Of a DNA stretch of 64,000 nt, positions 4,037-57,706 are shown one piece after another. Below the pieces are notes generated by a model. That model had not been told where the DNA came from. It made no database searches and was given only the letters and a program-made list of their open reading frames with translations. How positions within the stretch are numbered: the first letter of the stretch is position 1; the number at the start of each line of letters is the position of its first letter. The DNA lies in NCBI GenBank assembly GCA_965203175.1, contig OZ241867.1, positions 6,464,001-6,528,000 on the forward strand, given 5' to 3'. Made by a program: the position numbers and the translations under genes. This stretch comes from Candidatus Latescibacterota bacterium (lineage in GTDB: Bacteria; Latescibacterota; UBA2968; UBA8231).

Positions 4037-4086
4037 AGCAAGGCCGTGGCCAAGGCACCCGACGAAGGCATATTAAACAATATGCC
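4037..4086 (-). promoter_or_regulatory. Possible sigma54 -24/-12 site and adjacent 8-bp palindrome
   Basis: Minus strand TGGC-N7-TTGCT at 4052-4037; perfect inverted repeat GGCATATT-N4-AATATGCC at 4067-4086, in the intergenic gap. Confidence 0.4.
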
Positions 4087-4155
4087 GACCGAGGGTAACG
4101 CCGGCCACGGTCGGCGCAGCCGCGCGACGCCAGCAGAGCGGTTGGGTAGGGACTC

Positions 4156-7212: not shown

Positions 7213-7276
7213 AGTTCCACTTTCTCCCTCACTCGCCAGCGGCCCGCCCTTGCCGCGGCGCTTGCTGAAAAACTAT

Positions 7277-7305
7277 TAGGTATGGTTAAAACTCAGGGCT
7301 GTCAA
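7277..7305 (-). promoter_or_regulatory. Possible sigma70 promoter for the 7212 operon
   Basis: TTGACA (7305-7300), 17-nt spacer, weak -10 TACCTA. Confidence 0.35.
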
Positions 7306-7313
7306 GATAGCCG

Positions 7314-33071: not shown

Positions 33072-33073
33072 TC

Positions 33074-34261
33074 TCAGTCGGGCTCCGCCTCCGCGAATTC
33101 GACAAAACAGGTCGCCACAACCTTGTCGCGCCCAGGGGTAGGAGTCTGAACTCCAGCAACCGAATCCGCAACCGCACGCAGGTCAAGGCTAGCCGAGGGC
33201 CGCAAGCGCCAGCGTTTGACCTGCTCGACCAGACAATCGCCCACGGAGTCACTGTCCACGGTCGAAGCGAGAAGCTGGACACTTTCGACTAGACCACTAG
33301 CCAAGATGACAAAGCGGATGGTTGCACTGCCCGGCAACGCCCGACCGGCTTGGAATTCACCGGCAAAGCAGCGGTTGAACGCGTCGAGTCGGGAGCGGAC
33401 AAACGCATCAATGGTCTCCGGCGCGCGCGCCAAATCGTCTGGAGCATAGCCACTCACCTCGCTAGGTGCCTGCAAGCGCGCCTGCGTGGTAGCGAGTACA
33501 GCTTCTGCTCGGGTCCGATCAACCAATGCCGCTTGCTCGATCTGGCGGACAAAGCGAAAGTCCATGTCAAAGGTCTGCAAGGGCTGGTCAAAGGCATTGA
33601 ATTTGAGAATGAAATCCCGGATGTGTAAGCGCACCTCTTCCACCCCGTCGGCCAGCGGCTCAAAGACGATAAAGCCGCTGTAGTTTTCGCCTTTGTAGAT
33701 TTTCTCCCCAACGCCGTAATTGCTGGTGCGCACCTGCCCCATGCGCATGTCAAAGCGATAGTCCTCATTGCCAGTGACGCCCTTCCGAGCGCGGTAGTAA
33801 GATTCAAAACTATGAGCCGCCGAGCCGGTCGCTATGCCGTAGGGAGTCAGTTCCTCTCCCCGGCGGTTGGTCGTGAGCCGGCTCTGCAGCGGTTGTAGCT
33901 CCACCTTGGGAAAACCCAGATTGTACACGGAGACCGCAAAAACCGTAAAGCGATTGCGCACGTACCCCGTCTGGGGATCGACGTAGTCGCCATACGTATA
34001 GGCATTGTACGAATGCGGCCCCTGAGAGGACTCCTGCGGCCACAAAGCATTTAGGGCGCGGTCGGTCATGTAGCGAACCTCGACCCGCAGTCCCTCCACG
34101 GCATAGACGACAGTCCCATCCTCTCCCAGAGTATAGTCCGGCCCTAGATCGGAGCGAGGCATCAGCAGCGATACGCGCTCGTAGCGCGGCGGATAGAGGA
34201 TGGTGCAGCCGGCAAACAACAAGACACTCCATACCGCGTGGACAGCAAACGAAATGCGCAT
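33074..34261 (-). CDS. Lipoprotein with C-terminal AgmX/PglI (TonB-C-like) domain
   Basis: Lipobox FAGC; C-terminal FNRCF...GSATIRFVILASGLV...VGDCLVEQVKRWRL; paralog of 46190. Confidence 0.8.
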   Translation of the reverse strand: MRISFAVHAVWSVLLFAGCTILYPPRYERVSLLMPRSDLGPDYTLGEDGTVVYAVEGLRVEVRYMTDRALNALWPQESSQGPHSYNAYTYGDYVDPQTGYVRNRFTVFAVSVYNLGFPKVELQPLQSRLTTNRRGEELTPYGIATGSAAHSFESYYRARKGVTGNEDYRFDMRMGQVRTSNYGVGEKIYKGENYSGFIVFEPLADGVEEVRLHIRDFILKFNAFDQPLQTFDMDFRFVRQIEQAALVDRTRAEAVLATTQARLQAPSEVSGYAPDDLARAPETIDAFVRSRLDAFNRCFAGEFQAGRALPGSATIRFVILASGLVESVQLLASTVDSDSVGDCLVEQVKRWRLRPSASLDLRAVADSVAGVQTPTPGRDKVVATCFVEFAEAEPD

Positions 34262-34265
34262 GTAC

Positions 34266-35489
34266 TCAGCGCGCCTGGTTGTAAAAATCGATTTGCTGCT
34301 GGGCGATGGAGCCCTTCTGCGTCAGGGCAAAGACCACCATATTGACTCCCAGTTTCAGGTGCGGTTCGTTTTCGCTTTCGCGTTCCCAGAAGGCACCGTA
34401 CCCCTTGTCGGAATACACCGCCACCAGTCGGTCGCCGAGGAAAATGCCCTCCAAGTAGTACACCGAACTGCGGAAATTGCCCCCGGACAATTCCTCGCCT
34501 CCAGGGGGCGGGCCATCGTCAAAGTCGAAAAATACGTGGTAGAGCGGATGCTCGTTGGGAATGGGAACAAAGCGGGCGTCGCGGCCTAGGGCCTGCTTAA
34601 ACATGTCCCGCAGCGAGGCTTCGGCCGGGCCGTACTCCAGCTCGGGCCGGTCATTGTCGGCTACCAGGAACCCGCCGTTGCGCAGGTACTTGCCCAGATT
34701 GTCAATTTCGTGCTCGGTCAGTTCAAACGCGCTGCGGGTAGTGATGTACACAAAGGGGGCCTTGAACAGATCCTGGGAGTCGATAAACATCTGGTCGATG
34801 ACCCGGGCCTCAATGCGAGTGTACTGGTTGATGGCCCGCACCAACTGGGAAATCGAGCGCTGGCGCGAAGGCTGGAGGATGCTGCCCCAAGCCAGCCCCA
34901 AGTACACAAAGCCCTGGATGTTGCGCTTGTCGGCCGGATCCTGAATGACCATGCCCCGGTACTTGCCGGTGTCAATGGCGTCCAAGTCGAGGAATTCCGC
35001 CTGCATGTCAATGCGCTTTTCCGGCTCCTTCAGACTGGTCATTTCAACGGCTTCGAACTGGGGGACGCCCACCACCCCAAGACCCATGCCTTGGACACCC
35101 ATGTCGGCGATAAAGTCGTGGCCGCTGCGGGTGCGACTCCAACGCCGACCCGCGACAGCCTGATCTAGCTGAGCACCCAAACCACTGAAGCCACCCACCA
35201 CAGTGGCCGTCTGATCCCGCTGCACGGAGATAATAGGGGTACCCTCGGGAATGACCTGCTTTTTAAAGGCGAATTCCCGGCTCAACTGAGGGGGAGGAAT
35301 CAGCAGCGGCGTGTCCAATTCCTGCCATTCGAGGCGGATGGCGACCTCTTCCTCGGCCTGTTCAACGGGCCGAAAGTACAAGGCGACAAAAACCAAGTGC
35401 AACACTAGGGAGATCAGCAGGCCCCAGTAGAGCAAGCGCCGATTGGCCGCAAGAACGGCGAGCGGATCCGAGGAGCGCAAGGCTTTCAC
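34266..35489 (-). CDS. DUF4159 domain protein with N-terminal TM anchor
   Basis: SLVLHL TonB-like TM; YLRNGGFLVADND...HPLY...LEGIFLGDRLVAVYS...LGVNMVVFALT. Confidence 0.85.
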   Translation of the reverse strand: MKALRSSDPLAVLAANRRLLYWGLLISLVLHLVFVALYFRPVEQAEEEVAIRLEWQELDTPLLIPPPQLSREFAFKKQVIPEGTPIISVQRDQTATVVGGFSGLGAQLDQAVAGRRWSRTRSGHDFIADMGVQGMGLGVVGVPQFEAVEMTSLKEPEKRIDMQAEFLDLDAIDTGKYRGMVIQDPADKRNIQGFVYLGLAWGSILQPSRQRSISQLVRAINQYTRIEARVIDQMFIDSQDLFKAPFVYITTRSAFELTEHEIDNLGKYLRNGGFLVADNDRPELEYGPAEASLRDMFKQALGRDARFVPIPNEHPLYHVFFDFDDGPPPGGEELSGGNFRSSVYYLEGIFLGDRLVAVYSDKGYGAFWERESENEPHLKLGVNMVVFALTQKGSIAQQQIDFYNQAR

Positions 35490-38400
35490 AAGTGTTTCCT
35501 CGCAATGGTGGCGCGTCGACGTTCGACAAAGGCGCGGATGTTGGGGGCGAGCAGGCTGCTGTCTTCCCGGGCCGCGCTCAGAATGGCGTCAAACACGTCC
35601 ACAGCCCGTTGCCATTCCCCTAACTTTTGATGGCAGACCCCGATATTGGCCCGGGCGGCTATACCGCTGGAGGTATGCGGGAATTGACGCCACACTTGTT
35701 CAAAGCGGGGAATTAGGGCGCGAATCGCCTCGGCGTCGCTGAGTTCGGACGCGGCTTTGAGGCTGTCGGTCAACGCCGCGTAATCTCCGTAGGCCACAGC
35801 CTCGCGCAACTCGGGCAACGCGGTGGCGGCCTGAGCGGCAGCCGGAGTGCCGGGGTATTGTTCTTCGATTTGGCGAAAGAGGTCGTACGCCGCTTGGTGG
35901 TCGCCTTGATTGTACAACAGCTCGCCGAGAGTATAGCGGGCAATGGCCGCATAGCGGCCCTCGGGAAAGCTTTCGAGGTACGCCGCAAAGGCCCGTTGCA
36001 CCTCTTTATTTTTCTGGTCCGCATCCCCAGAAAGGGAATTCATCAGACACCAGCCAATGTTGTAGAGAGCTTCCTCGGCCAAGGGGCTATGGGGATAGCG
36101 GTCAATGAGCTGCTGGTACTGGCCCTGAGCCTGATCGTACTGCTGCAGATTATAGCGGCATTCGGCTAGTCGAAAGAGAGCATCTGGGGCAATGTTGTGG
36201 TCCGGGGCCTGGGCCACGACGAACTCAAAGGCAGCCACGGCCTGGGCAAAAAGAGTCTGATTGAAGTACGCGTATCCCAAGTAGTAGTGGGCTTCCGCGG
36301 CGTTGGGGTGTTCCGGGTAGCGAGTGATCGAATCCTGCAAGCGGCCGACCGCCTCTTCGTAGCGGTCCAGTTGCAGGGCGGCCAGTCCGCCCAAGAAGAG
36401 AAAATCGGGCGCGTAAAATCCACTCGGGTACGCCGCCAGACCCGCAGCCGCGGCGTCGGCCACGGCTTGGTAATCTTCCAAGCGCAAGGCGGCGTCGGCC
36501 ATGAGCCAGTAGCACTTTTCGCGCAGATAGTAGGTGCGCTCTAAGGGCCGCTCTTCTTCGGCAAAGTCGAGGGCGAGCAGTTCCCGGCAGGTGGCAATGG
36601 ATCGGCCGTAGCGCTCTTGGCGGTAGGCGATTTCGGCCAAGGCCAGCAAGTACTCGCCGCGTTGGAACGGAGAGGAAGCCGTCTGCAGTAAACGTCGATA
36701 TAGCTGCAATCCTTGTTCAATGCGCCCACCGGCGATATAGGCCGCAGCCAACAGACGGGAAGCCGCTGTCAGGGACGAATCTGCAGCGGCGCGCTCTAGA
36801 TCGGCGATGGCTTGGGCGTGCTGACCGAGCCTGAAATAGGCCATGCCCCGGCCGTAAAAGGCTTGGTGGACAAAGGCCGAATCCGCAGCGGCTAGGGTTT
36901 GGTCAAAGTAGGGTAGGGCCGCATCGAGGTCGCCGACGCGAGACAGAGCCGTGGCGATGAGATAATTAAACAGCGTTTGAGAATCCCTAGCAGTCTCGGT
37001 TTGAGTACCTTCCCGCAGGACGGCCAACGCCCGTTGGAAGCGCCCCTGCTGCTGCAGGAGGCGACCCGCTTCGAGTCGGGAGCGCGAGAAAATTTCTGCC
37101 TCGCCACGGACCTGGAGAAAGGAGGCGACCGCCTCCTCCCAAGCGCCGGCATCGCGCTGGGCTATGGCCGCTTCAAAGCGGGCGATATCCGCTTCGGGTT
37201 TGTCGCCCAACTCTTCCTCTAAGCTCTGGTAGATCTGGACGGCATCCGCGTACTCGCCGCGGCCGTGGAGGATGCGGGCGCACTGGAAAAGGGCGCTGTT
37301 TCGGTACCCACCAGCCTGCGACGAGGTCGCCAACGCCTGGAAAATGTCGAGGGCCTGATCGGTAGTAGCCGCCTCGTTCTGGCGCTGCAAAGCCAGCCCC
37401 AAATTGAAGCGCAGGTCCATTTCGTAGGTCGAGTTGGGAAAGGCTTCTAAGGTGCGGCGCAATTCCGCTTCGGCGCGGCGGAAAAGATCGGCCCGCTCCT
37501 CGGGCGCGACTTCTCCCGCTTCGGCGCGGCCGAACCAAGCCTGGGCAATTTGCAGTCCCACCCCTTCGAGGGGTAGGCCGGCTTGAGCCGCAAAAGCGGC
37601 ATAGTCGTCGCGGTACGCGCTGTATTCGCGCACGGCCTCTAGGTAGTTCCCAGTTTCAAAGTAGCGGTTGGCCAGCAGCAATTGCAGCCGCGCCCGGCCA
37701 AAGTCGTCCTGTTGCGCTTCTAGGGCGCGCTGGTACACCGCGATACTCGCGGCGACATCGCCGCGCTGGTAGTGCAACTGAGCCTGGCGCAAATAGGCTT
37801 CCTCGGACAGGCGACGCTCGTCGGCAAAGCGCGCGGCCACCACGGCATAGGCCTCCACGGCCAGCGCGTGATCCCCAGTGCGCTCGCGGCACTCGCCAAT
37901 GCGCAGTAGGGCTTTGGCCGCAATCTCCAGCTCGGTCTCGTCGACTAGGCCGGCGAGTTTGTTGCGCTGCATGCGCAAAATCTCGCGCACGGACATGCGG
38001 TCGAGGCGCTGCGAGTCGACTAGCCGCTGGTAGTTGGGGATGGCTTCGGCAAAGCGCTCCAACGCAAAGTAGCATTCGCCAATTTGAAACAGCGCCCTGC
38101 TGGTGCGATACCCCAAGGGGAAACGCCCGACCAAATCCTCAAAAACCGCAATGCTTTGGACGTACTCGCCCAGTTGATAGTGCGACCAGCCAATATCGTA
38201 CAGCGCATGAGCTACATAGGGACTAGTGGGATATCTGGCGACTAGCTGCCGCGCTTCGTCGATGGTGCGGCGATACTCTCCCATGCGGTACGCGCAGGCC
38301 ACAGCGCGGCTGCGGGCGAGGGCCTGGAGCACCGGAGTAGCGGAGAGGGTCTCGGTGGCGACAAACGCCTCCACGGCCTGTCCCAATAAGTCGTCGGCCC

Positions 38401-38740
38401 GACTCTGGTGCTGGACGCGCGTTTCGTCGCTGCGGGCCTGCGCCGCCCTTTTGAGTTCTTCTTCGCCCATTTTGAAATAGGCATTGCCAATTTGGTACGC
38501 GGCCACTTCTTGCAGGGGCGCGTCTATTTGGCCGACGGAAACTCGAATGGCCTCCATCGCGAGCAATTTGTGCCGACTGCGCATGATGTGGCGATAGTTT
38601 TCAATGGCCTGATCGTAGGCCCCAGAGGCGTAGAAATTCTGGCCGTGCTCAAAGCGGGCCTGCATCTCCTCGGCCGTGGGCACAAAGCGAGTCGCAGCCG
38701 CGGCGAGAGTCAGTAGAGATAGGATGGCTAACGGCAGCAT
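35486..38740 (-). CDS. Giant secreted TPR protein (YbgF/BamD-type repeats)
   Basis: Signal peptide; many repeats of the YPxSxxAxxALYxIG type over 1084 aa. Confidence 0.88.
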   Translation of the reverse strand: MLPLAILSLLTLAAAATRFVPTAEEMQARFEHGQNFYASGAYDQAIENYRHIMRSRHKLLAMEAIRVSVGQIDAPLQEVAAYQIGNAYFKMGEEELKRAAQARSDETRVQHQSRADDLLGQAVEAFVATETLSATPVLQALARSRAVACAYRMGEYRRTIDEARQLVARYPTSPYVAHALYDIGWSHYQLGEYVQSIAVFEDLVGRFPLGYRTSRALFQIGECYFALERFAEAIPNYQRLVDSQRLDRMSVREILRMQRNKLAGLVDETELEIAAKALLRIGECRERTGDHALAVEAYAVVAARFADERRLSEEAYLRQAQLHYQRGDVAASIAVYQRALEAQQDDFGRARLQLLLANRYFETGNYLEAVREYSAYRDDYAAFAAQAGLPLEGVGLQIAQAWFGRAEAGEVAPEERADLFRRAEAELRRTLEAFPNSTYEMDLRFNLGLALQRQNEAATTDQALDIFQALATSSQAGGYRNSALFQCARILHGRGEYADAVQIYQSLEEELGDKPEADIARFEAAIAQRDAGAWEEAVASFLQVRGEAEIFSRSRLEAGRLLQQQGRFQRALAVLREGTQTETARDSQTLFNYLIATALSRVGDLDAALPYFDQTLAAADSAFVHQAFYGRGMAYFRLGQHAQAIADLERAAADSSLTAASRLLAAAYIAGGRIEQGLQLYRRLLQTASSPFQRGEYLLALAEIAYRQERYGRSIATCRELLALDFAEEERPLERTYYLREKCYWLMADAALRLEDYQAVADAAAAGLAAYPSGFYAPDFLFLGGLAALQLDRYEEAVGRLQDSITRYPEHPNAAEAHYYLGYAYFNQTLFAQAVAAFEFVVAQAPDHNIAPDALFRLAECRYNLQQYDQAQGQYQQLIDRYPHSPLAEEALYNIGWCLMNSLSGDADQKNKEVQRAFAAYLESFPEGRYAAIARYTLGELLYNQGDHQAAYDLFRQIEEQYPGTPAAAQAATALPELREAVAYGDYAALTDSLKAASELSDAEAIRALIPRFEQVWRQFPHTSSGIAARANIGVCHQKLGEWQRAVDVFDAILSAAREDSSLLAPNIRAFVERRRATIARKHL

Positions 38741-38757
38741 AGATCGTTCCTCGACAC

Positions 38758-40839
38758 CTAGTAGACTACTCCGACGACCCCGGCGACGCGTTCTGCGCCC
38801 GTGTCCACCTCAACTTCCACCCGATAGAGGTACAGGCCTGGAGCCACTAACAAACCCGTGGCATTGCGCCCATCCCACAAACCTGGGGGCCGACTGTCGG
38901 TTGGCAGCCGCACATAGGCCCCGGCCAACAGCGGCGGCGGACTGAGGTCGCGCACCAAGCGTCCGCTCAAATCGAAGATACGAATGCCTACCTGTCGCGG
39001 AGCCTCAACCTTGGAGAGGGCGAATTCAATAGCGGCAAAATCGTTGATCCCATCAGCGTTGGGGCTGAAGACCGGCGGGTGGACGCGCACTTGGGAGAGC
39101 GCCCGCTTCTCCGAGGTCGCGGCCGACAACACCCACGAATAAGGTGCATTGCTCTGCGGGTCAATGGCCGCGTTCTCGGCCACGTTGAGCGGATTGTCAG
39201 AATTGGGAGCAAAGAGGCGGGCGCGAAACGCATGGATCGCCGCGTGCGTTCGCGTCCTAAAGCGAATTTGCAACTGGGCGTCCTGCCGCAGCGGCTCGGC
39301 CAAGGAGATGGTTAGCTTGTCGCGCGTCGAGTCCCAAGCCTCAAGCGCACTACCTTCCAAGCCGGTGATTTCTTCGAGCATAGCCGGCGCGGGCACGTCG
39401 ATGCGGATCTGGGCTAGGCCCGCGTCGGCGTCGGCGAATTCCACATCGAGCGTGTAGGTAAAGGAGGTATCCCGGCCCATGGGGACGCGGTTGGGGACAA
39501 TGCGGCCCCACGCTTTGGAGACGGGCACTTGGTCGAGATCAAAATCGATCTCTAGGTGCTTGAAAACAGGGGTTTTCTCGGGAGAACGAGTCGCCATGTT
39601 GACCCGATATTGCAAAAGCGCCCGCGGTTCCTCGGCTGGAAACCAGATGTCCCCGGTGGTGAGGGGCGAGCTCCACCCCCCTGCCGAATCGGCTAGCGCG
39701 GCAGCTTGGTCGGCGCTGCGGAACTGCACGGTGAGTTCCGTGCCATCGGGAACTGTGGCCCGCCAGCGCACTCGACCTACGTTCTTGACCACGTCTGGAG
39801 CGCCTAAGTCGAGCGGTGCCGAAATGAACGTTCCCCGCTCTGCGTGCAGGCTGCCGTACACCTCTATTTCGGCTACGTTGGGCTGAGTGATGGCGTTGAT
39901 ATCGACGATGACCAAGCGCAAGTGGCGCGTCCACAGCGGCGGGAAGCGGACCTCGCTGCGGATGAAATCGACGATGTCGCGCAGGATGGCCACTTCGGTC
40001 CAGCGAATTTGGTCGTCGCTGACCTGAATCGAGTACCCGCGCAGGGAGCGGTCGAAGTACTGCTCTTGGTTGCGGCCCCGGGTTAGAACCCGCACAGCGT
40101 GGATTTTGCGCCGCGTTCCCAAGTCGATATCGGCATTGAAATTCAAGGCGTTGATCGGCGGATTCCACGAGGTATTCAAATCGCCGTCGAGCACTTCCGG
40201 GCGATTGGAGATCCGGTCCTTGGCCAAATTTTGGCCGCGCACTTGTTTGAGGATAATGCCGCCGGCTAGAGAGCCAATATCCGTCCCACCTAAAAAGCCG
40301 GCGATAGGCTGGCCGAAGGACAAAGACGGCTCCAAGGTGCCTTCTTGTACCAGATGCCAAGCCTCGTCCCGCGCCACCTCGGCAGTCGTCCACCCATCGT
40401 CATCCTGCAACTGGTCACTCCAGTACCAAGGCTGGCGGGTGCGATCGGTCGTCGTTTGCACTGTCGAGGTGTCCCCCGCAGCAAATTCCACGGCCACGGT
40501 CGCGGCCAAACCATTGCCCCGCCCGCGACCGTGGTTGACCACCAGCGCGGCGATGTGGTTATCGCCGCGCACCACTGGCACCGCAAAAACTCGCGGCTGC
40601 ACAGCGCTGGAATCGCTGCCGACTAGCTCTCCGTTGAAGTACGCGGCAAAGCTGTCGGCTGCGGCCATGTGCAGCAAGCCCTCGCCGGCTTCGGGGGCCT
40701 CAAAGGTGGCGCGGTAGTAGAGCGCGCTGCGCCATGCGGTCTGCTCCCAGGTGCTCCCCTCGGTCTGGACGGCGGAGCACACTGCGGCTAGGCCGACAAC
40801 GGCGAGCAGGATCCGTTCTTTCAAAACTGTGGGGATCAT
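38758..40839 (-). CDS. Secreted discoidin-domain protein with C-terminal FlgD-Ig/CHU_C-like domain
   Basis: VLDGDLNTSW...IDLGTRRKI...YSIQVSDDQIRW; PVFSPNADGIND...WDGRN...PGLY...VGVVY; paralog of 55646. Confidence 0.82.
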   Translation of the reverse strand: MIPTVLKERILLAVVGLAAVCSAVQTEGSTWEQTAWRSALYYRATFEAPEAGEGLLHMAAADSFAAYFNGELVGSDSSAVQPRVFAVPVVRGDNHIAALVVNHGRGRGNGLAATVAVEFAAGDTSTVQTTTDRTRQPWYWSDQLQDDDGWTTAEVARDEAWHLVQEGTLEPSLSFGQPIAGFLGGTDIGSLAGGIILKQVRGQNLAKDRISNRPEVLDGDLNTSWNPPINALNFNADIDLGTRRKIHAVRVLTRGRNQEQYFDRSLRGYSIQVSDDQIRWTEVAILRDIVDFIRSEVRFPPLWTRHLRLVIVDINAITQPNVAEIEVYGSLHAERGTFISAPLDLGAPDVVKNVGRVRWRATVPDGTELTVQFRSADQAAALADSAGGWSSPLTTGDIWFPAEEPRALLQYRVNMATRSPEKTPVFKHLEIDFDLDQVPVSKAWGRIVPNRVPMGRDTSFTYTLDVEFADADAGLAQIRIDVPAPAMLEEITGLEGSALEAWDSTRDKLTISLAEPLRQDAQLQIRFRTRTHAAIHAFRARLFAPNSDNPLNVAENAAIDPQSNAPYSWVLSAATSEKRALSQVRVHPPVFSPNADGINDFAAIEFALSKVEAPRQVGIRIFDLSGRLVRDLSPPPLLAGAYVRLPTDSRPPGLWDGRNATGLLVAPGLYLYRVEVEVDTGAERVAGVVGVVY

Positions 40840-44478: not shown

Positions 44479-44480
44479 AG

Positions 44481-47317: not shown

Positions 47318-47321
47318 CGGC

Positions 47322-50138: not shown

Positions 50139-52816
50139 CCTTTGAACGGCTCCAATCCCATGACTAGGCGCATGAAAAACAAAACTTGGTCAATGTCTTC
50201 GATCTGGCGCGAGCGGTCGTCGAATTGCAGTTGTTTGCGTTGGTAACCCGTGCTCAGACTGAGGTGGTAGCCCTTGTAGGTCGTCCTATTGGTCACCATG
50301 ACCACATAGTCCTCGGCCCCATAGTTGACAGCACCGTTGACGCGATCGCGGTACCTGCTTTTGAGCCAGGGCAAGCCCTGGGCACCAGCGCTGAAGCGGG
50401 TCATGGGCGTCAGATTGTACGTCGCGGTCAGGATCGGATAGAAAAAGCGCTCTGAAATGGGCCGCACCCGATCGCTGCGATCGCGCCGCACAAAGCCCAT
50501 GTACTTAATGCGGGGTGTCACCGTCAAGCTACCCACATTCCAGTTATACGCCGCTCTCAACACCCAGGACCAAGCGCCGATTCGATTGGCGGGTTGTAGG
50601 GATGTGGGGCGCTGGAAATTGACGTCGTACTTGAGGCGCTGGTCGATGTTGAGGTTGTCGATGCGGAAGAAGGTGGCCTTGAGATAGGCGGTGTTGACCA
50701 AGCTATTGCGCATGGCCAACTCGTCCTCGACTAGCTCAAAATTAGCCACATTGGCGTCAAAAGTACCCCGCACCTCAAAGGGTAGGGCATTGGAGATGCG
50801 CGGCAAAAATTGCGGAGTGTCGTCCTCAATGTCGTCTTGCACCTGCTTGAACACATTGAAAAATTCCACGCGGCCGTACGGGAAAAGGGAGCGCTGATAG
50901 GCCGTCTTGAAATAGGAGACGCGGTTTTTCCCCGCTCCCCAGATCTGGCGCGTGCGGTAGCGTCCCACGGTAAATTCAAGTCCGGTGCGGGGACGTAGGC
51001 CGGCGAACAGGTGATGTCCCTGGGTATCCACATCGTAGGGATAATCGGGCTCAAAGTCGTCTTCCCGATGGTCGATGATGCCGTTGTTGTCGAAGTCGTC
51101 GCCGTAGTCGTATTCGGGAGGATCGACGTTATAGAGTACAAAGGGCTCGAGGTAGTCGGGAGCGGTGTTGCCGTTTTCGTTGGGATCGGGCTGGCCGTCC
51201 TGATCGAGGTCGAGGCCGGGGAAGATGCCGTCGTTATCGGCAAAATTCGGTATGAAGTGCATGTCGGGAAAGCGGTCGCGATCGTCGTTGTCATCTACCG
51301 TGGACAATTCGAGGGTGTTGTTGTAGCGCTCGTCAAAGCTGGGAAAGACGCTGAAGGGGCTGCGCAGATCCTCGGTGTACGTGCGGTAATTCCGGTCCTC
51401 GACGGAAATGCTAGTGCTGTACTGGGGCGCGATGCGGAAGACCTCAAAGCCTAAGCTGGCGCGGTGCCAATCCCGAGTAGTATTGACAAAAAAGGCGTCG
51501 GCCGTGCGACGCTGCCACTTGCCGTCTCCGGCGTGGGAGGGATACTGGCGAAATTCAAAGGTGCGGGCGAACTCCGTGCGCAGAGAAAAATCCCGGCGCT
51601 GCACTTCGAGGCGCAGGCTGGCATTGGTGCGGCCCGTGTGGCGGCCGTACTCAAAGTTCACCCAGCGCCGGTTGGAGCCATCGCGCACTTGGCCCTCGGC
51701 CGCGATCACCGGATAGAAAAAAGTGGCGCGTTCGCCAGTTATATCGACGTTGGTCGATGACTCGACCGCAGCCGGCAGAAAAACTTCGGCCATTTCAATG
51801 CGGTAGTCATTGGCCACCATCCCGCGAAAGCGCAAGCGCTCGACCTGCCCTCGCATCTCCTGGGGTATTTTGAACCAGTAGAGCAAAAACTCCGAGCCAT
51901 TGGCTTCGAGAAATTCCCCTTGCTCGGCCGGCTCCACAGCCAAGTCTCCCCGGAGAAACTCGATGTACGGCGGTATGGTCTTGCCCAGCGGAAAGAAGCG
52001 GTCGCGGTTGGGATAGGTTCTATCGATTTGCTCGCTATCGTGGCGGGTGACGAGTGGCTGGACGGTTCCGAGCGTCCCTTCGATGTGCAGGTCGTAGATC
52101 CGGGCTCCGCCGCCATCCTTAGGCGAACCATCGTCGAACTTGACCACTATGTAGGCCGGCGGCGTGTTCTTGCGCGGCACCACGCCCTTGATGCTGTTGT
52201 CGCCCCAAGAGGTCAAGCTGTTGGTGCGGTGCAAGTTGACATAGGAGAAGCTCACGTCCAGCACCCCGAACTTGCGCTGGACGTGGCCGCCGAGCAGGTA
52301 GGTAGCCCAATCCCGGGCTCCGTGCAATTCGAGATTATCCCCCGGAAAGATGGGCCAGTCGAGGCGCGACGTGACAAAGGAAAATTGGCTGCCATCGACA
52401 TCGGCGTCCCAGCGGGCGCCGTTGAGCGCAACTAGGTCGAGAGTGAGGGCGGTGAACTTGGTGCGGATGCGGTCGCCGACGATCAGCCGGCTGCTCCAAT
52501 TGCCATAGCTGTCTTGGGCCACCAGCAGGCGATTGAGGTACTGCTGGTAAAAGCGGCTTTTGTCGATAAAACTACCCGACTCGGGCGGATTGGTCCGCCC
52601 TTCCTCCAATTCAAAAACGCCGACCCCGTCGAGGACGAAGTTGCCCAAATCGTCGTACACATTGCGCGTGACTTGGCCAAATATCCCCGAGTTGTACGCG
52701 CGGTACCCCTGGCGGGCATAGCTTTCGTAGCGCTCCTCAGCATCGTAGAGCAGTTGCCCAAAGGCGGGCGCGGACCAAGCCAAGACGATGAGTACTAGGA
52801 CCATCACAGCACGCAC
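50135..52816 (-). CDS. Large secreted acidic protein, putative OM beta-barrel family (paralog C)
   Basis: Start uncertain (GTG 52816 or ATG 52804 give a clean signal peptide; frame is open to 52879); same motifs; ends FFMRLVMGLEPFKG. Confidence 0.75.
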   Translation of the reverse strand: MRAVMVLVLIVLAWSAPAFGQLLYDAEERYESYARQGYRAYNSGIFGQVTRNVYDDLGNFVLDGVGVFELEEGRTNPPESGSFIDKSRFYQQYLNRLLVAQDSYGNWSSRLIVGDRIRTKFTALTLDLVALNGARWDADVDGSQFSFVTSRLDWPIFPGDNLELHGARDWATYLLGGHVQRKFGVLDVSFSYVNLHRTNSLTSWGDNSIKGVVPRKNTPPAYIVVKFDDGSPKDGGGARIYDLHIEGTLGTVQPLVTRHDSEQIDRTYPNRDRFFPLGKTIPPYIEFLRGDLAVEPAEQGEFLEANGSEFLLYWFKIPQEMRGQVERLRFRGMVANDYRIEMAEVFLPAAVESSTNVDITGERATFFYPVIAAEGQVRDGSNRRWVNFEYGRHTGRTNASLRLEVQRRDFSLRTEFARTFEFRQYPSHAGDGKWQRRTADAFFVNTTRDWHRASLGFEVFRIAPQYSTSISVEDRNYRTYTEDLRSPFSVFPSFDERYNNTLELSTVDDNDDRDRFPDMHFIPNFADNDGIFPGLDLDQDGQPDPNENGNTAPDYLEPFVLYNVDPPEYDYGDDFDNNGIIDHREDDFEPDYPYDVDTQGHHLFAGLRPRTGLEFTVGRYRTRQIWGAGKNRVSYFKTAYQRSLFPYGRVEFFNVFKQVQDDIEDDTPQFLPRISNALPFEVRGTFDANVANFELVEDELAMRNSLVNTAYLKATFFRIDNLNIDQRLKYDVNFQRPTSLQPANRIGAWSWVLRAAYNWNVGSLTVTPRIKYMGFVRRDRSDRVRPISERFFYPILTATYNLTPMTRFSAGAQGLPWLKSRYRDRVNGAVNYGAEDYVVMVTNRTTYKGYHLSLSTGYQRKQLQFDDRSRQIEDIDQVLFFMRLVMGLEPFKG

Positions 52817-52838
52817 CTCTCGATAAAAATCAATCGCC

Positions 52839-52868
52839 CCATCTGCGTTCCATCTGCGTCCATCTGCG
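52839..52868. repeat. Three tandem copies of CCATCTGCG
   Basis: Copies at 52839, 52850 and 52860, between paralogs D and C. Confidence 0.7.
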
Positions 52869-52875
52869 GATAACA

Positions 52876-55563
52876 TCACAGCACGCGCGCCTGGACGAAA
52901 AATTCTTTGAAGTTGCGCACCCTGCGGCCGGGCGTGTGCACAAAGCGGGTGTGGCTGGCGCGGAAACCCAAATTGAGACTGAGATCGAAGCCCCGGTTGT
53001 GGCTGCGGTTCTCAATGGCAAAAAGGTAGTGGCGGGCCGTGAAATCTCCGGCCGGGTACTCCGGGTTGCGGAAGGTATGAGGCCAGCCCGGCAAGCCCTG
53101 AACGCCAAAGCGCAGCACCGTGGCTTGGCCCAGTGTGTAGTCCGCCTGCAGAATGGGAAAAAGTTCATACGTGCGGAGAGGCAACAGCAGATCCTCGGGA
53201 GCGGTGCGGCGCTGAAGCCTCAGTTTGGCGCTGGGGCGGATTTTTAGGCCCTGGCGCACAAAGGTGTAATCCGCCTTGCTGGTCCAAGTCCAGTCGATAA
53301 TATGGCGTCGCTGGTCTAGCGTCTCCAGCATGCGGTTGATTTCGAGCTTGGTGGTAGCTTTGACTTGCATCCCGGGTATAGGCGCGTATCCCGCGGTGCC
53401 GTACAGGGTGTGGAGCCAGCTATTTCGCGCCAGCAGTGGATCGGGTTTGATCTTGATCGCGGTATTGGTCGCGGTCAGCGGATCGACGACGTGCTGGTAC
53501 ACTGGATCGGCGATAGTATCGCGCACCCGCTTGCTCCGCATATTGAACTGTACATGCCCTCTCTGGTATTGCGCCTCCCCGTACGCGACTTGGTTGCGGC
53601 CGGCACCAGCGCGCTGTTCAATGCGGTACTGCCCGAGGCGGAATTGCCAGGATGAGCGGGGGTGGAGAAGGGCGAATGAATGATACCCACGGCTATCGAG
53701 CGGATAGGGATAGTCCGGCAGATTGTCGTTCTCGCGCCGGTCCACTACGCCGTTGTTGTTGAAATCGTCGCCGTACACAAAATCATCTGGTTCAACGGCG
53801 TACATGAGGAACGGCTCGGCGTAGTCGGGTATCTGGTTCTGGTTCACATTGATCGCCAAAACCCCATCTCCATCTTGGTCCAGCCCGGGAAAAACCCCGT
53901 ACCCAACGCCGTTGCCGAGGTTGCCGGGCAGGTAATCAATGGCGGCCTGAGTCGGCTGGCTCTCCGGGTCCACGCCAGCGGCATCCTTCAGACTGATGTA
54001 GAGTGGATCAAGCGGATCCCAGTGCTCCCAGCGGTCCTCCCAGTAGTCGCCGTCGTCGTTGTCGTCCACCAGCGCGTAGTCCAGAACCTTGTCGGCGCGT
54101 TCCGACCACATGGGCAAAGTAGTGGCGTACGCCGCCGGCAGGCCAAACATCTCAAGGCCGACTGCGAGGCTATCCATCTGGTGCAGCCCCTTGAGGAAAA
54201 AGGCCCGGCTGGCGCGGCGCTGATGCTGGCTGGCACCAGGGAAGCGGCGGTACCCAACGTTTTCGACCAACTCGCCCGCAAGGGTCGTCCCCTCCCATTC
54301 CCAAAGAAAGTCGCTGCCGTACTGGATTTGCGCAGTGGGAAAGCCGTATTCAAAACTCACCCAGCGCAAGTTGGACCCATCCCGGACATTGCGCGGCGCA
54401 CGCGCGACATTGTGCCAGTCAGTCCAGATGCGATTGGGCACGCCGGCCCAGCCGTAGGCCGCCGCCACGTCAATACTATAGTCGCCGGCCACTTGGGCGC
54501 GAAAGCTCAGGCGCTCGGCCGTAGCTGGAATTTCCCAGCGGTAGACCAGCAGGTCGGTGCCGCCCACTTCGAGGGGAAACTCCGCTGCTGCAACGGGCAG
54601 ACCCTGCTGAAAAAAGAGGCCGCGTTCCCTCCGTCGGTTGTTGAGCCGGGGATCGAAGACTCGGTCGCGCGGTACGCTCTGCGGGGCCCAGGGACCGTGG
54701 CGGCGCAGATGGGGGACGTGGTCCGGGTCGGCAAGGCGCGGGATGCGCCGAATATCCGGCTCGATTGGGAGCGGAGCACCATCGACAAAAATTTCCACGG
54801 CCAGCACTTGCACGCCGCTGTCATCCTCGGGAGAATCGTCGCTGAAAACCACGTAGTAGGCCGTAGTCTTAGCCAAATCCGTCGGAAAGGTGCCGCGCGT
54901 CGACCCCCGGCGCTGCATGCTATCGCGCAGATGCAGATTGACGTACGAACCACCGACGGTGAGCACATTGCCCAGACGGCTTTCCCAGCGGCCGCCGAAC
55001 AGATAGGTGGCAAACGGGAGATTGTTGGCACCGCCGACTAGCGGCGAAGAAACCCGAGCACCCAGTACGGTAAAGCGATTCTTGTACGAAGCCCCATCCC
55101 AGCGCAGCCCCTGCAGGCGCGCCTTGTCGAGAGTTAGCGGCGTGAAGCGGGCCTCGAGGGCGTCGCCGACCATGACCCGGGCCGACCAGTCGCGGTAGTG
55201 ATCGCGCATGATGACCAAGTTGCGAAAGGTGGCCGCAATATTGCCGCTGCGGAAAATTCGGCTGCTGCGCTGGGGTGCTAGCGTGCGGTATTCCTCCACG
55301 CGCAACAACTCCACCCCGTCGAGCAAATAGGCCCCAAAGGGGTCGTAGGTCGGGTTCTCGGGACGGGCCGTGTAGTCGCGGTAACTGAGCAGGCTGTAGT
55401 TTTCGTAGCGCTCGTGCCACCAAGGGTAGTACTCGCGGTTGAGGAAGCGGGACTGGGCCTGGCTCCAAGGCAGGTACTCGGTGGTGGTAAGTTGGCCTTC
55501 CGCCCGCTCCCAAGCGATGACGCAGAGCAACGCAGCCAGCCCAATGATCGGGAGGCCCTTCAT
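52876..55563 (-). CDS. Large secreted acidic protein, putative OM beta-barrel family (paralog D)
   Basis: Signal peptide ending AEG; YENY, FTPLTLD, DDSPED, NVRDGSN, VDDNDD, FPGLD, PDYAEPFL, PDYPY; ends FFVQARVL. Confidence 0.78.
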   Translation of the reverse strand: MKGLPIIGLAALLCVIAWERAEGQLTTTEYLPWSQAQSRFLNREYYPWWHERYENYSLLSYRDYTARPENPTYDPFGAYLLDGVELLRVEEYRTLAPQRSSRIFRSGNIAATFRNLVIMRDHYRDWSARVMVGDALEARFTPLTLDKARLQGLRWDGASYKNRFTVLGARVSSPLVGGANNLPFATYLFGGRWESRLGNVLTVGGSYVNLHLRDSMQRRGSTRGTFPTDLAKTTAYYVVFSDDSPEDDSGVQVLAVEIFVDGAPLPIEPDIRRIPRLADPDHVPHLRRHGPWAPQSVPRDRVFDPRLNNRRRERGLFFQQGLPVAAAEFPLEVGGTDLLVYRWEIPATAERLSFRAQVAGDYSIDVAAAYGWAGVPNRIWTDWHNVARAPRNVRDGSNLRWVSFEYGFPTAQIQYGSDFLWEWEGTTLAGELVENVGYRRFPGASQHQRRASRAFFLKGLHQMDSLAVGLEMFGLPAAYATTLPMWSERADKVLDYALVDDNDDGDYWEDRWEHWDPLDPLYISLKDAAGVDPESQPTQAAIDYLPGNLGNGVGYGVFPGLDQDGDGVLAINVNQNQIPDYAEPFLMYAVEPDDFVYGDDFNNNGVVDRRENDNLPDYPYPLDSRGYHSFALLHPRSSWQFRLGQYRIEQRAGAGRNQVAYGEAQYQRGHVQFNMRSKRVRDTIADPVYQHVVDPLTATNTAIKIKPDPLLARNSWLHTLYGTAGYAPIPGMQVKATTKLEINRMLETLDQRRHIIDWTWTSKADYTFVRQGLKIRPSAKLRLQRRTAPEDLLLPLRTYELFPILQADYTLGQATVLRFGVQGLPGWPHTFRNPEYPAGDFTARHYLFAIENRSHNRGFDLSLNLGFRASHTRFVHTPGRRVRNFKEFFVQARVL

Positions 55564-55594
55564 AATTCAGTATACCTATTTTAAATATTGCGCC

Positions 55595-55623
55595 GTAGGG
55601 GGCGGTTTGAAACCGCCCCCTAC
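55595..55623. repeat. GTAG-type REP-like palindrome
   Basis: GTAGGGGGCGGTTT-G-AAACCGCCCCCTAC perfect inverted repeat, intergenic. Confidence 0.8.
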
Positions 55624-55645
55624 CCGGGTGCGTAACATCAGTTAG

Positions 55646-57706
55646 TCAGTAAACCACAGCCACGTGGCCGCTGTGGACCGCCTCCCCTGCATCGACCTCG
55701 ACCTCGACCTGAAAGAGGTAGAGACCCGGGGGCACTAGGTTGCCGCGGTCATCGCGTCCATCCCAATAGCCGGGGCTTTCCCTCTCCCGGCCGGGCAAGC
55801 GCAAATAGGTTCCCGCGCTCAGGGCCGGGGGCCGGAGCCGGGCCACAGTGCGGCCGCTTAAGTCGAAGATGCGCATGGATACTGGGCGCGCCACATCCAC
55901 TCTGGAGAGAACCAATTCGATCACCGTGGCGTCGTTGACACCATCGCCGTTGGGCGAAAATACCGGCGGATTGGCCCGCACCTGTTCGAGGACTTGGCCG
56001 GTAACCGTGGTCGTAACCAACGTCCACGAATGGGGCCTTTGAGTGCGCGGGTCTTCGTCTTGATTGGGCGCGGCATTGAGCGGATTTTCCGAATCTGGGC
56101 TAAACAGGAACGCGCGAAAACGGTGCAGATGGGCATAGGAGCGAGTGCGGAAGGGAATCTGCAACTGAGTGCTTTGCCGCAGGGGCTCGGCGAAAATCAA
56201 GGTGAGCAAGTGCTGGGTGGAAAACCACTCGGCCAGCACAGTACTCCCCAAGTCAATACCCGGGCCGAGCTGAGCCTGTCCAGGCACAGCTATTTGCAAG
56301 CTTTTGACCCCCTGATCGCCAGCGCCGATCTCCACGTCGAGGGTATAGACAAAGTTGGTATCCACGCCCATCGGCACCCGGTTGGGCTCGACGCGACCAC
56401 GGGCCGTGGACGCAGCTATATCCTCGGTGGAGTACTCGATGCTCAGATCGCGAAAAAGAGGACTTTTCTCCGGGTCCCGGCTCTCCATATTGACGCGATA
56501 CTGCAAAAACCGCCCGGGTTCGGGGCCGGGAAAAAGGATTCCTCCAGCGACCAGCGGAGTGCTCCAGCCCCCCTGGGGATCGGCAAAAGCGTCCAAGGTG
56601 GCACCGCTGCGAAACTGGACCGCTAGATCCGTGCGCAGGGGAATGTCTGCATTCCAAGCGATGCGGCCGAAATTCTTGCGCTTGTCCGGTGCTCCCAGAT
56701 CCAGCGGTTCGGAAAGAAAAACGCCCTCCTCGGCAAAACCCTCGCCAAAGACCTGAATCTCGGCGACCTTGGGCTGGCTCACGCCATTGACGTCGATGAT
56801 GACAATGCGCACGAACCGGGTCCAAGTCGGATTGAAGACCACTTCGGTGCGCTCGAACTGGAGGATATCGTGCAAAACCCCCACCTCGGACCAGCGGATT
56901 TCATTGTCGCTGACTTGCACGGAATAGCCCTGTAGGGAATTCTGGGCGAAGTCGGGCCCCTCGGTGAGCACCCGCACGGCCCGGATCAGTCGGCGCTGTT
57001 GCAAGTCGATGGAGGCGGCAAAATTGACCGAGGATACGGGCGGTTCCCAAGCAGTGCGCAAATCGCCATCCACGGCTTCTATGCGATTGGAGGGCCGCCC
57101 TAAAGCCAAGTTCTCACCGCGTATTTGCTTGAGAACCACGCCACCAGCCACGCCGCCGATATCCGTGCCGCCGGGAAAACCAGCGACTAGGTCCGGGGCC
57201 GGATCGGGCAAGCCCTCGATCAGGCCGCGATTGACGCTACCGGCCTGGACCACCTGCCAACCCGGCTGCTCCGCGATCTCGGCCACTTGCCAGTCCGTGT
57301 CGGCCGGGCGAGCGGTCCAGTACCAGGTCTGGGCTTTGGGATCGGTCTCGCCGTAGCGCAGGGAATCGACCGCGACCACAGCCAGCAGGCCATGCCCTAC
57401 GCCCAAACCGCGATTGACCACCTCGACGGCCAAGGCGTTATCGCCGCCGAGCACGTCAACTGGGTAGGTGTGCACCTGGTTCCAAAACGCACTGGCCCCG
57501 ATGGCAACGCCATTGAAATAGACCGCAAAACTGTCCACCGCGGCAATGTGGAGCAGCCCTGAGGCACCGCTATCGGCCGCAAAGCTAGTGCGGTAGTACA
57601 GGGTATTGCGATAGGTGTCCTGGGTCCAGACCTCGGCGCGGCTCCCACCCGAAAGCATTAGCAGGAGGCAGGCTACCAACCCGGATCTGATGTGGGCTCG
57701 GACCAT
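55646..57706 (-). CDS. Secreted discoidin-domain protein with C-terminal FlgD-Ig/CHU_C-like domain
   Basis: Full-length paralog of 38758 (LYYRxxF, LKQxRGxNLA, PNRVPMG, NPLN); PVFSPNGDGVND...WDGRD...PGLY...VAVVY; start ATG 57706. Confidence 0.82.
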   Translation of the reverse strand: MVRAHIRSGLVACLLLMLSGGSRAEVWTQDTYRNTLYYRTSFAADSGASGLLHIAAVDSFAVYFNGVAIGASAFWNQVHTYPVDVLGGDNALAVEVVNRGLGVGHGLLAVVAVDSLRYGETDPKAQTWYWTARPADTDWQVAEIAEQPGWQVVQAGSVNRGLIEGLPDPAPDLVAGFPGGTDIGGVAGGVVLKQIRGENLALGRPSNRIEAVDGDLRTAWEPPVSSVNFAASIDLQQRRLIRAVRVLTEGPDFAQNSLQGYSVQVSDNEIRWSEVGVLHDILQFERTEVVFNPTWTRFVRIVIIDVNGVSQPKVAEIQVFGEGFAEEGVFLSEPLDLGAPDKRKNFGRIAWNADIPLRTDLAVQFRSGATLDAFADPQGGWSTPLVAGGILFPGPEPGRFLQYRVNMESRDPEKSPLFRDLSIEYSTEDIAASTARGRVEPNRVPMGVDTNFVYTLDVEIGAGDQGVKSLQIAVPGQAQLGPGIDLGSTVLAEWFSTQHLLTLIFAEPLRQSTQLQIPFRTRSYAHLHRFRAFLFSPDSENPLNAAPNQDEDPRTQRPHSWTLVTTTVTGQVLEQVRANPPVFSPNGDGVNDATVIELVLSRVDVARPVSMRIFDLSGRTVARLRPPALSAGTYLRLPGRERESPGYWDGRDDRGNLVPPGLYLFQVEVEVDAGEAVHSGHVAVVY

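Follow-up and report, generated by a model that had tools for sequence, protein, structure and literature searches.

Gene content of the operon

The window analyzed here (a stretch of 64,000 nucleotides, bases 6,464,001-6,528,000) comes from the single-contig 6.58-Mb genome of a Candidatus Latescibacterota bacterium (GenBank assembly GCA_965203175.1, contig OZ241867.1; genome label G000). Thirteen tightly packed minus-strand open reading frames (ORFs; G1-G13, Table 1) occupy positions 33074-57772, in the order given by an original prediction that was made from the sequence alone. This operon is a motor-less, insert-bearing copy of a conserved Latescibacterota envelope gene set, whose core encodes a surface protein (F), three paralogous giant outer-membrane barrels (D, C and B), a tetratricopeptide repeat (TPR) protein (T), a DUF4159 protein (U) and a lipoprotein (L).

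The G1 ORF is open up to position 57772 (TTG), and an ATG at 57706 stands before the signal peptide. Junction lengths were computed with the start codon closest to each upstream stop. Seven of the 12 junctions are overlaps of 1 or 4 bases (e.g. the G8 start, 43654, overlaps the G7 stop by 4 bases) and four are gaps of 2, 4, 4 and 17 bp, so that the predicted overlaps or spacing of 2-17 bp hold for 11 of them; the exception is the longest gap, 82 bp, between G1 and G2. A convergent gene ends 2 bp below G13, and the operon therefore ends at G13. The arrangement is not a product of chance, since the order of the core genes recurs in many genomes. A promoter/terminator scan of positions 32500-52400 was uninformative (3 promoter-like and 15 terminator-like sites versus 4.0 and 18.6 in shuffled sequences).

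Export signals were assigned by reading the translations by eye, without a signal-peptide predictor. Signal peptides were distinguished on G1-G4, G10 and G11, a lipobox cysteine on G5, G6, G7, G9 and G13, and a single hydrophobic anchor on G8 and G12, which bears out the claim that every product is exported or anchored.

G1 and its paralogue G10 (phmmer E 1e-213) had been labelled FlgD-discoidin proteins, and the discoidin part of the label stands. G1 matches Pfam families F5_F8_type_C (42.4 bits) and CHU_C (27.9 bits, cut-off 27), but its FlgD_ig match (23.7 bits) is below the cut-off of 27. The G10 protein matches F5/8 type C, with CHU_C below the cut-off (23.9 bits) and FlgD_ig unreported; the type B model TIGR04131 gave 17-18 bits on both proteins (cut-off 35). 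Matches to G1 over most of its length (E <= 1e-94) are confined to three loci of this genome that carry three barrel genes each.

The two lipoproteins claimed to carry TonB-C/AgmX domains, G5 and G13, share 45% identity. Both exceed the cut-off of 40 of model NF033768 (57.2 and 48.6 bits, respectively), but the Pfam side of the claim is weaker, as TonB_C is below its cut-off in G5 (23.7 versus 24.6 bits) and G13 has no Pfam match at all. The G11 protein (T) matches the YbgF model in five stretches (210.5 bits, cut-off 90.1) and is likely to be a periplasmic scaffold. For G12 (U) the sole solved relative is PDB entry 4i66, a protein of unknown function (E 8.9e-5), and its ESM Atlas neighbours are DUF4159 clusters only. 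Among the accessory genes, G7 scores far below the cut-offs of the PvdO and GldK models, while G9 is the best GldK-like match of the genome (122.8 bits), also far below the cut-off of 350.

The conserved core, its sister loci and motor genes

To place the operon among its relatives, the regions around the best G3 match were fetched from nine other genomes. Seven of the 13 genes (F, D, C, B, T, U and L) form a core whose order is kept across genera and families of Latescibacterota. Genes G5-G10 constitute an insert (L, CRTAC1-like, FGE-fold, SGNH-TPR, FGE-fold and F), which among the nine genomes was seen in those of the same genus only. Of these, G131 retains all genes in order (12 of 13) but for G9, which was undetected, while in G123 the locus is broken, G2 is missing and the genes beyond G6 are different. 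Four genomes of other genera (G088, G055, G060 and G147) carry D, C, B, T, U and L, lack the G5-G10 block and vary slightly in order; F lies upstream of the core in all of these except G088. In G061, F, D, B, T and L are kept, and other ORFs occupy the positions of C and U under simple gene calling. Two genomes represent other families: G006, with the Pfam-checked order F-(opposite-strand gene)-D-C-T-(DUF5683-like)-(148 aa)-ExbB-ExbD-ExbD-U-L, and G019, with D-C-(218 aa)-B-T and an ExbB gene about 5 kb beyond.

The window's genome holds three triple-barrel loci, i.e. the window operon, locus B and locus C. A larger set of 75 loci was drawn from a species collection; 29 of them hold a barrel together with T and with U or L, T orthologues follow the barrels in 29, and an ExbB gene lies within the 10-kb flanks of 11 of the 29 core loci. 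These counts favour core loci, because the 75 loci were chosen by their likeness to G3. None of the three outcomes named as refuting the original prediction occurred, and its proposal of a lineage-specific energised complex is supported, but the conserved unit amounts to seven of the 13 genes, and the genome contains three triple-barrel loci and 62 barrel paralogues.

Compared with the canonical locus, the window operon is without four pieces: the DUF5683-like gene, the small gene, the ~311-aa gene and the motor genes. Neither MotA/ExbB (PF01618) nor ExbD (PF02472) was found among the 13 genes or within the window, so its copy has lost, or never possessed, the motor block. The prediction that an energy source must be encoded elsewhere agrees with the presence of ExbB-ExbD(-ExbD) genes in locus C, in two further loci, D and E, and in orthologous loci. 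Of the seven MotA/ExbB matches identified in the genome, three belong to the T-U-L blocks of loci C, D and E. The block itself encloses the ExbB and ExbD genes in G006 as well as in loci D and E. Locus E has the arrangement T-ExbB-ExbD-U next to L, and a 311-aa PorV/PorP-like barrel (PorV/PorQ 73 bits, PorP/SprF 48.8 bits, both below the cut-offs) replaces D, C and B. The motor genes of the sister loci score far below the ExbB/ExbD equivalog cut-offs; for the ExbB and ExbD proteins of locus C the top models are TolQ (81.2 bits) and TolR (57.8 bits), again far below the cut-offs.

Two observations concern the surroundings of motor genes. A conserved protein of ~300-324 aa without a Pfam or NCBIfam match is encoded between L and ExbB in canonical loci (L010:18187-19122; orthologues in L047, L049, L052, L055, L058 and L107); two weaker paralogues occur elsewhere in the genome, none of them in the window operon. 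An ExbB-family gene (G000:C1:6529048-6529740; L015:1048-1740) is placed 1,048 bases beyond the window end, directly after the window-edge sulfatase gene, and the ORF next to it is without an ExbD match.

The family called AgmX lipoproteins in the original prediction has 18 members in the genome, all with a lipobox and an N-terminal domain of ~240 residues. The TonB-like C-terminal extension is limited to three of them, G5, G13 and the copy in locus B, and is lacking from the 252-aa copy of locus C. The L family is therefore defined by its N-terminal immunoglobulin (Ig)-like lipoprotein domain and not by the AgmX tail. An AlphaFold2 model of G13 (pLDDT 84.4) has two domains: an Ig-like sandwich, nearest to the YcdA (Z 8.5) and YjhA (Z 7.7) lipoproteins by VIA, with modest scores, and a C-terminal domain that overlays TonB C-terminal domains over 78-87 residues (VIA Z 6.2-7.2, root-mean-square deviation (rmsd) 2.7-3.1 Å). 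TolA C-terminal domains also match this fold (Z 5.6-6.3). The elements of TonB are consequently split, with the TonB-type fold residing on the lipoproteins G5/G13 and the membrane helix on the DUF4159 protein G12. Complex prediction, in which the TonB-like tail of G13 was paired with segments from the N-termini of D, C and B (score 0.00, mark 0.32), speaks neither for nor against binding.

Upstream of G1, the window carries a gene for a 607-aa protein with a type IX secretion system (T9SS)-type C-terminal domain (CTD). Proteins of 606-607 aa are encoded upstream of F in G131 and G123 as well, the likeness being one of size alone, and the gene is a possible upstream member of the unit within the window's genus only. 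A PD40 (TolB-like beta-propeller) gene (57816-58871) lies between it and G1. Since the corresponding place in G131 and G123, two genomes of the same genus, is without this gene, we regard the gene as a recent insertion outside the system.

Table 1. Features of the operon, its sister triple-barrel loci and related genes (window positions; those of loci B and C carry the contig label C1)
Feature	Position	Strand	Description
G1 (F)	55646..57706	(-)	Secreted surface protein: N-terminal beta-rich region, F5/8 type C (discoidin), T9SS-type CTD
G2 (barrel D)	52876..55563	(-)	895 aa; giant outer-membrane barrel, first of the three paralogues
G3 (barrel C)	50135..52879	(-)	914 aa; barrel modelled by AlphaFold2
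G4 (barrel B)	47322..50138	(-)	938 aa; third barrel
G5 (L)	46190..47317	(-)	Lipoprotein: Ig-like N-terminal domain, AgmX/PglI-type TonB-like C-terminal domain; first gene of the insert
G6	44481..46190	(-)	CRTAC1-like lipoprotein (FG-GAP_3 repeats, UnbV_ASPIC); accessory, in insert
G7	43651..44478	(-)	FGE-sulfatase-fold lipoprotein; Pfam FGE-sulfatase 160 bits; accessory
G8	41588..43654	(-)	Membrane-anchored SGNH/GDSL hydrolase-like protein with TPR; Lipase_GDSL_2 40.5 bits; accessory
G9	40836..41591	(-)	Second FGE-sulfatase-fold lipoprotein; Pfam 217 bits; accessory
G10 (F2)	38758..40839	(-)	Second discoidin/CTD surface protein, G1 paralogue; last gene of the insert
G11 (T)	35486..38740	(-)	Secreted 1084-aa TPR protein; YbgF- and BamD-type units; TPR over entire length
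G12 (U)	34266..35489	(-)	One N-terminal membrane helix, DUF4159 (Pfam 115.5 bits)
G13 (L)	33074..34261	(-)	Core lipoprotein: Ig-like domain ~31-243, TonB-CTD fold ~274-393
Locus B	C1:5632179-5650904		T-U-L-(155 aa)-F-D-C-F-B; no motor gene
Locus C	C1:6154009-6173755		F-D-C-B-T-(DUF5683-like)-(small fn3-like)-U-L-(311 aa)-ExbB-ExbD-ExbD
607-aa protein	58945..60768	(-)	T9SS-type CTD, FlgD_ig 64.3 bits; upstream of G1
Second barrel cassette	259..8948	(-)	Separate small cassette, same barrel family; make-up recurs at other barrels
SurA-like PPIase of second cassette	7314-8948	(-)	Pfam
Discoidin/CTD protein of second cassette	4156-7212	(-)	Pfam
Barrel paralogue of second cassette	1306-4080	(-)	Paralogue of G2-G4
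TPR protein of second cassette	259-1305	(-)	Pfam

Barrel family, paired surface proteins and distribution

The barrel proteins G2, G3 and G4 have no Pfam or NCBIfam match (E <= 0.01) and no sequence match in the PDB; the sole database name met for them is "hypothetical protein". With such components the operon does not map to a known system, in agreement with the original prediction. G3 shares 34% identity with G2 and 32% with G4. Its AlphaFold2 model, based on a 29-row alignment, is a large beta-barrel (pLDDT 72.3, pTM 0.71) with a beta-rich insertion at residues ~240-395 and a poorly modelled N-terminal region of ~90 residues. Low confidence was also obtained for residues 534-575, located within the best-conserved stretch of the family, which is rich in Asp and Asn (~528-618; invariant columns 530-615) and which may resemble a calcium-binding repeat.

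Fold comparison of barrel C (Foldseek, VIA-align) returned only generic large barrels: MtrB, SlpA, FimD, LptD, TonB-dependent transporters and SprA. The top matches were 6r2q_B (Foldseek E 9.5e-9; VIA Z 12.7 over 392 residues), 8ae1_A (E 1.6e-8) and FimD (Z 12.4), with TM-scores <= 0.35 and rmsd of 5.8-15 Å. The barrels foreseen in the original prediction are therefore borne out by the model for G3 and, by paralogy to it, for G2 and G4, and we predict D, C and B to be large generic beta-barrels. A relaxed Pfam scan (E <= 1) of 29 family members detected no Plug, PorP, TSP3 or dockerin family; the single family reported was SlpA_C, in two of the 29 (best E 6.6e-4). All 30 of the nearest ESM Atlas clusters of barrel C are without a common Pfam family, and the nearest cluster with a name is DUF6029 (0.89), which is no more than a lead.

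When 1.84 billion representative proteins were searched with a profile, 1,107 barrel relatives were obtained at E <= 0.001, 370 of them at E <= 1e-30. In the barrel tree, the members of 13 loci, assigned purely by position (first, second or third after F), form three clean clades (13/13 each; support 100, 100 and 99), and 53 single or paired barrels of the window's genome form a fourth (support 91). From the three clean position clades it follows that D, C and B are old and not interchangeable.

The 62 barrel paralogues of the genome are arranged in 42 clusters, i.e. 25 singles, 14 pairs and 3 triplets. Their neighbours were counted on a greedy gene set of 5,274 genes. The immediate upstream neighbour on the same strand is a G1/G10-like CTD protein for 42 of the 62 barrels, compared with a background of 168 such genes in 5,274; the remaining neighbours are another barrel (14), an unlabelled gene (4) or an opposite-strand gene (2). 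Forty of the barrel-upstream proteins were scanned: 34 have a C-terminal CHU_C and/or FlgD_ig domain (E <= 1e-4), CHU_C (the type B CTD family) being the most frequent CTD match, 13 have a discoidin domain, two are CBM9-like, and no enzyme domain was detected in any of the 40. Among 60 neighbours of 20 barrel clusters there are 10 SurA-like peptidyl-prolyl isomerases (PPIases), 8 TPR proteins, 11 further CTD proteins, 3 CRTAC1-like proteins and one glycoside hydrolase (GH5), encoded on the opposite strand. SurA-like chaperones occur in 10 of the 20 clusters. The window itself carries a second, smaller barrel cassette of this make-up (Table 1).

On a tree of CTDs, those adjacent to barrels cluster together (18 changes versus a mean of 39, range 35-42, in 200 shuffles). 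This is weak evidence, because duplication of entire gene pairs may explain it. Several T9SS genes were identified in the genome: SprA_N (82 bits), PorU (632.5 bits, cut-off 420) and a PorV-like gene (147.5 bits, below the cut-off of 250). In view of these, the CHU_C/FlgD_ig tails were read as T9SS sorting domains, and a home-built profile recognized 248 T9SS-type CTDs in the genome. The GldL and GldM models had no match, but control genomes likewise gave none, which makes the result uninformative as to absence. No porKLMN-like neighbourhood was found at the two longest FGE-fold genes, SprA or PorU.

The barrel profile matched 94 of 151 sampled Latescibacterota genomes. As these genomes are kin, few independent events underlie such counts. 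Barrels were detected in the window's own genome and in all 63 other sampled genomes of its family, and in none of the sampled genomes of families f2 (0/30), f3 (0/19), f4 (0/2) and f8 (0/5); most other genomes were positive. PorU exceeded its cut-off in 93 of the same 151 genomes, in largely the same families as the barrels among the matches listed, and the f2 and f3 PorU matches among those listed were below it. Barrels were found only in families with T9SS-type PorU. One KSB1-labelled genome (G151) has a single barrel, in a core-like locus, while the 60 other sampled genomes of that phylum have none; a range beyond the phylum was rejected, as this lone copy fits gene transfer or a binning error.

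Further features of the genome and the window were also recorded. About 60 CRTAC1-like paralogues (FG-GAP_3 with ASPIC/UnbV) are present in the genome, often close to barrel clusters, and a separate FG-GAP protein is encoded at 23613-25721. The convergent gene at the end of the operon (31569-33071; 500 aa) has no family match, and downstream of it lie two adjacent large type I phosphodiesterase/nucleotide pyrophosphatase proteins (27354-31470, minus strand). A block of lower G+C content (12490-23522; 0.51-0.56 versus ~0.60 elsewhere) contains genes for type I restriction-modification (HsdR, HsdS and HsdM) interleaved with Fic, DUF2806, HEPN-like and YgjP-like metallopeptidase genes, and it probably represents a defence island that was acquired. 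Runs X1-X20, labelled as sponge, coral and marine metagenomes, yielded near-identical DNA as well as RNA-library contigs of 90-99% identity, which suggests a host-associated marine habitat of the genus.

Possible functions and comparison with known systems

We tentatively favour, at somewhat less than an even chance, an ExbBD-energised trans-envelope complex of the Agl-Glt or SprB-SprF kind that holds and works surface lectins. A force-transmitting platform is preferred because the core parts list equals the Agl-Glt architecture and the pairing of CTD proteins with barrels recalls PorP/SprF. In its full form, ExbB-ExbD-ExbD would constitute a proton-driven stator in the inner membrane, coupled to the single-pass DUF4159 protein U and the TonB-tailed lipoprotein L. 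These two would engage the giant TPR scaffold T in the periplasm, and T the three distinct barrels D, C and B, so that force would pass from the inner membrane to a surface protein and an adhesin or lectin would be exposed, held or moved. The window's copy would borrow ExbBD in trans from a paralogous locus. We infer the protein contacts, the direction of force and the output of this scheme; the gene set and its conservation, the folds of barrel C and L, the motor genes in cis at other loci and the T9SS genes are the observations on which it is built.

Several points weigh against such a complex. The window operon and locus B are without a motor gene, and borrowing in trans is assumed; L is a lipoprotein and not a TonB with a membrane helix. 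The barrels have no homology to GltA/B/H, SprF/PorP or any named family, and the likeness is one of architecture only. A TonB-like S-x3-H motif in the helix of U was dropped as an argument, being present in some clades only among 43 aligned orthologues and paralogues. In family f8, four of five genomes have PorU above the cut-off and none has a barrel, from which it follows that T9SS does not need the barrels. Short contigs from four RNA-library runs (90-99% identity, along 37850-57840) cross the G11/G10, G9/G8, G6/G5 and G3/G2 junctions, so that an absence of co-transcription was not indicated, but they are a weak hint of expression, from which a single transcript is not deducible and in which DNA carry-over is possible. 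We know of nothing reported on motility or adhesion in uncultured Latescibacterota. Moreover, the carbohydrate-binding type domain of F would fit nutrient capture equally well.

The last point leads to the main rival, energised import, in which F would capture a surface glycan and TonB-like lipoprotein, U and ExbBD would open a channel formed by one or more of D, C and B, as an analogue of SusCD/TonB uptake made from unrelated parts. The F5/8 type C domains of F and of 13 of the 40 upstream proteins agree with this, as do the CBM9-like proteins upstream of two other barrels and in locus E, and the TonB-type fold of L with ExbBD in cis amounts to a Ton parts list. Expansion to 62 barrels is typical of substrate-specific uptake families, and sulfatase and phosphodiesterase-type enzymes are encoded nearby in the window. 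However, a Plug domain is missing from the barrels, although 31 matches to it above the cut-off exist elsewhere in the genome (ordinary TonB-dependent receptors), L has no membrane helix, and three fixed, distinct barrels per locus are unlike known importers. The neighbours of the barrel clusters, among which the lone glycoside hydrolase is set against the SurA-like PPIases, TPR and CTD proteins counted above, look like envelope assembly rather than catabolism. Energised import is accordingly rather unlikely, though to be taken seriously.

Static surface display would dispense with force altogether: the barrels would be PorP/SprF-like outer-membrane anchors or assembly partners for T9SS cargo, T, U and L would be assembly or tethering factors, and the nearby ExbBD would serve another purpose. 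The frequent order of a CTD gene followed by a barrel gene, the SurA-like chaperones and the nearly equal numbers of genomes with barrels and with PorU, in largely the same families among the matches listed, all fit this idea. So does the clustering of barrel-adjacent CTDs, although it may only mirror duplication of gene pairs. ExbB-ExbD is nevertheless inside, not merely close to, the T-U-L block in loci D, E and G006, and the TonB-like domain is confined to core-locus copies of L; we consider static display unlikely. A Tol-Pal-like system of envelope integrity or division, with a TolQR-like motor, a TolA-like tail on L and a CpoB/YbgF-like TPR protein, seems very improbable. The G11 score on the YbgF model, the TolQ/TolR matches of locus C (far below the cut-offs as they are), the TolA domains among the fold matches of L and the PD40 gene just upstream of G1 point towards it. 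On the other hand, the PD40 gene is absent at that place in G131 and G123, no Pal/OmpA-like gene is present in the locus, G11 is four times the length of CpoB, and nothing in Tol-Pal corresponds to three copies per genome, to three giant barrels or to a surface lectin.

If the favoured trans-envelope complex is taken one step further, it could be a third independent ExbBD-powered surface machine, besides Agl-Glt and the Gld/T9SS track. T9SS-delivered lectins would ride giant barrels, the triple-barrel core would be the driven hub, and the ~40 CTD-barrel pairs would be cargo-carriers plugging into it. We hold this extended version to be improbable. The triple-barrel hub may substitute for a PorKLMN-type energiser, which was not found in the genome with an uninformative control.

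Only a handful of machines, namely Ton, Tol, Agl-Glt/Nfs and the T9SS/Gld track, are known to transfer proton-motive energy from the inner membrane to the outer one. If the favoured reading is true, another one is conserved across an uncultured phylum, and the earlier ones each taught general principles. The barrel family, with up to ~60 copies per genome, has no named relative, the orphan families DUF4159 and the Ig-like lipoprotein gain a concrete genomic context, and T9SS-type cargo is paired with dedicated barrels outside Bacteroidota. The parts are sufficiently well defined to allow the structure of the whole assembly to be predicted and expression in a laboratory host to be attempted. 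Supplementary files aside, we met no description of this envelope system in the literature on the outer membrane and TonB of Latescibacterota, no paper linking the phylum with type IX secretion was found, and DUF4159 turned up in the Pfam paper only. The passages of PMC4454575 that deal with the Latescibacteria outer membrane refer only to ordinary porins and TonB import.

Both Agl-Glt/Nfs of myxobacteria and SprB-SprF-GldK of Bacteroidota pass force to a surface protein. In the Agl-Glt model as outlined in PMC11761067, the giant GltD is the docking site for the TonB-like domains carried by GltG and GltJ, AglRQS is the motor, and the outer-membrane barrels GltABH with GltK hold the adhesin CglB. 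The likeness to the present core (in the parts of the model given there) extends to the presence of three barrels, an adhesin on the surface, a periplasmic protein that is very large and rich in TPR, AgmX/PglI-type tails, for which G5 and G13 both pass the NF033768 cut-off, and a stator of the TolQ/ExbB type encoded by one ExbB-like gene and two ExbD-like ones. There are also differences. The GltG equivalog NF033760 gave 31.8 and 20.2 bits against a cut-off of 650, in the tail domain only, and the TonB-like domain is carried here by an Ig-like lipoprotein and there by a membrane-helix protein. The barrels (~900 aa) belong to a family without named relatives, the adhesin is a T9SS-type CTD protein and not a lipoprotein, DUF4159 has no listed Glt counterpart, and no cytoplasmic platform genes were seen here. 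The NCBIfam scan (E <= 0.01) detected no Glt families on G2-G4 and G11, the content of Glt models in that library being unchecked.

According to the relevant parts of PMC9143113 and PMC12635249, respectively, type B CTD proteins anchor to PorP-like barrels, and an internal track made up of FGE-fold lipoproteins (the GldK track in the case of SprF) drives outer-membrane proteins or barrels. The resemblance to the Bacteroidota T9SS lies in the CTD surface-protein gene directly before an outer-membrane barrel gene, in the FGE-fold lipoproteins (the GldK/GldJ fold) of the window operon and in the PorV/PorP-like barrel that takes the place of the barrels in locus E. However, the PorP/SprF model TIGR03519 has no match in G2-G4, which are about three times longer, G9 is far from the GldK cut-off, and the motor here is of the ExbB/ExbD type.

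In common with Ton, the system has genes with ExbB and ExbD Pfam domains, found in cis at sister loci, as well as the TonB-type fold in L and outer-membrane barrels as the likely target. It differs from Ton in lacking both a Plug domain (PF07715) and a TonB with a membrane helix, and in possessing three fixed barrels together with a TPR protein of giant size and a protein with DUF4159; no Pfam or NCBIfam match to a SusC-type transporter or a SusD-like lipoprotein was found in the 13 genes. As for Tol-Pal, scores above a cut-off are limited to the TPR units of G11 on the YbgF model, and no full TolQ-TolR-TolA-TolB-Pal-CpoB set is present in the locus.

Barrels of the MtrB, LptD, FimD and SlpA type enclose or connect a partner protein. 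Such sheath-type barrels (MtrB of MtrCAB, LptD, the FimD usher and Deinococcus SlpA) are the top matches of barrel C at the level of fold, with no sequence relation, and barrel C is set apart from them by its beta-rich insertion and its conserved Asp/Asn-rich stretch. The energy logic of the system is of a known kind. Its novelty lies in the family of barrels, the splitting of the TonB-like elements, DUF4159 as a partner and the connection to T9SS cargo.

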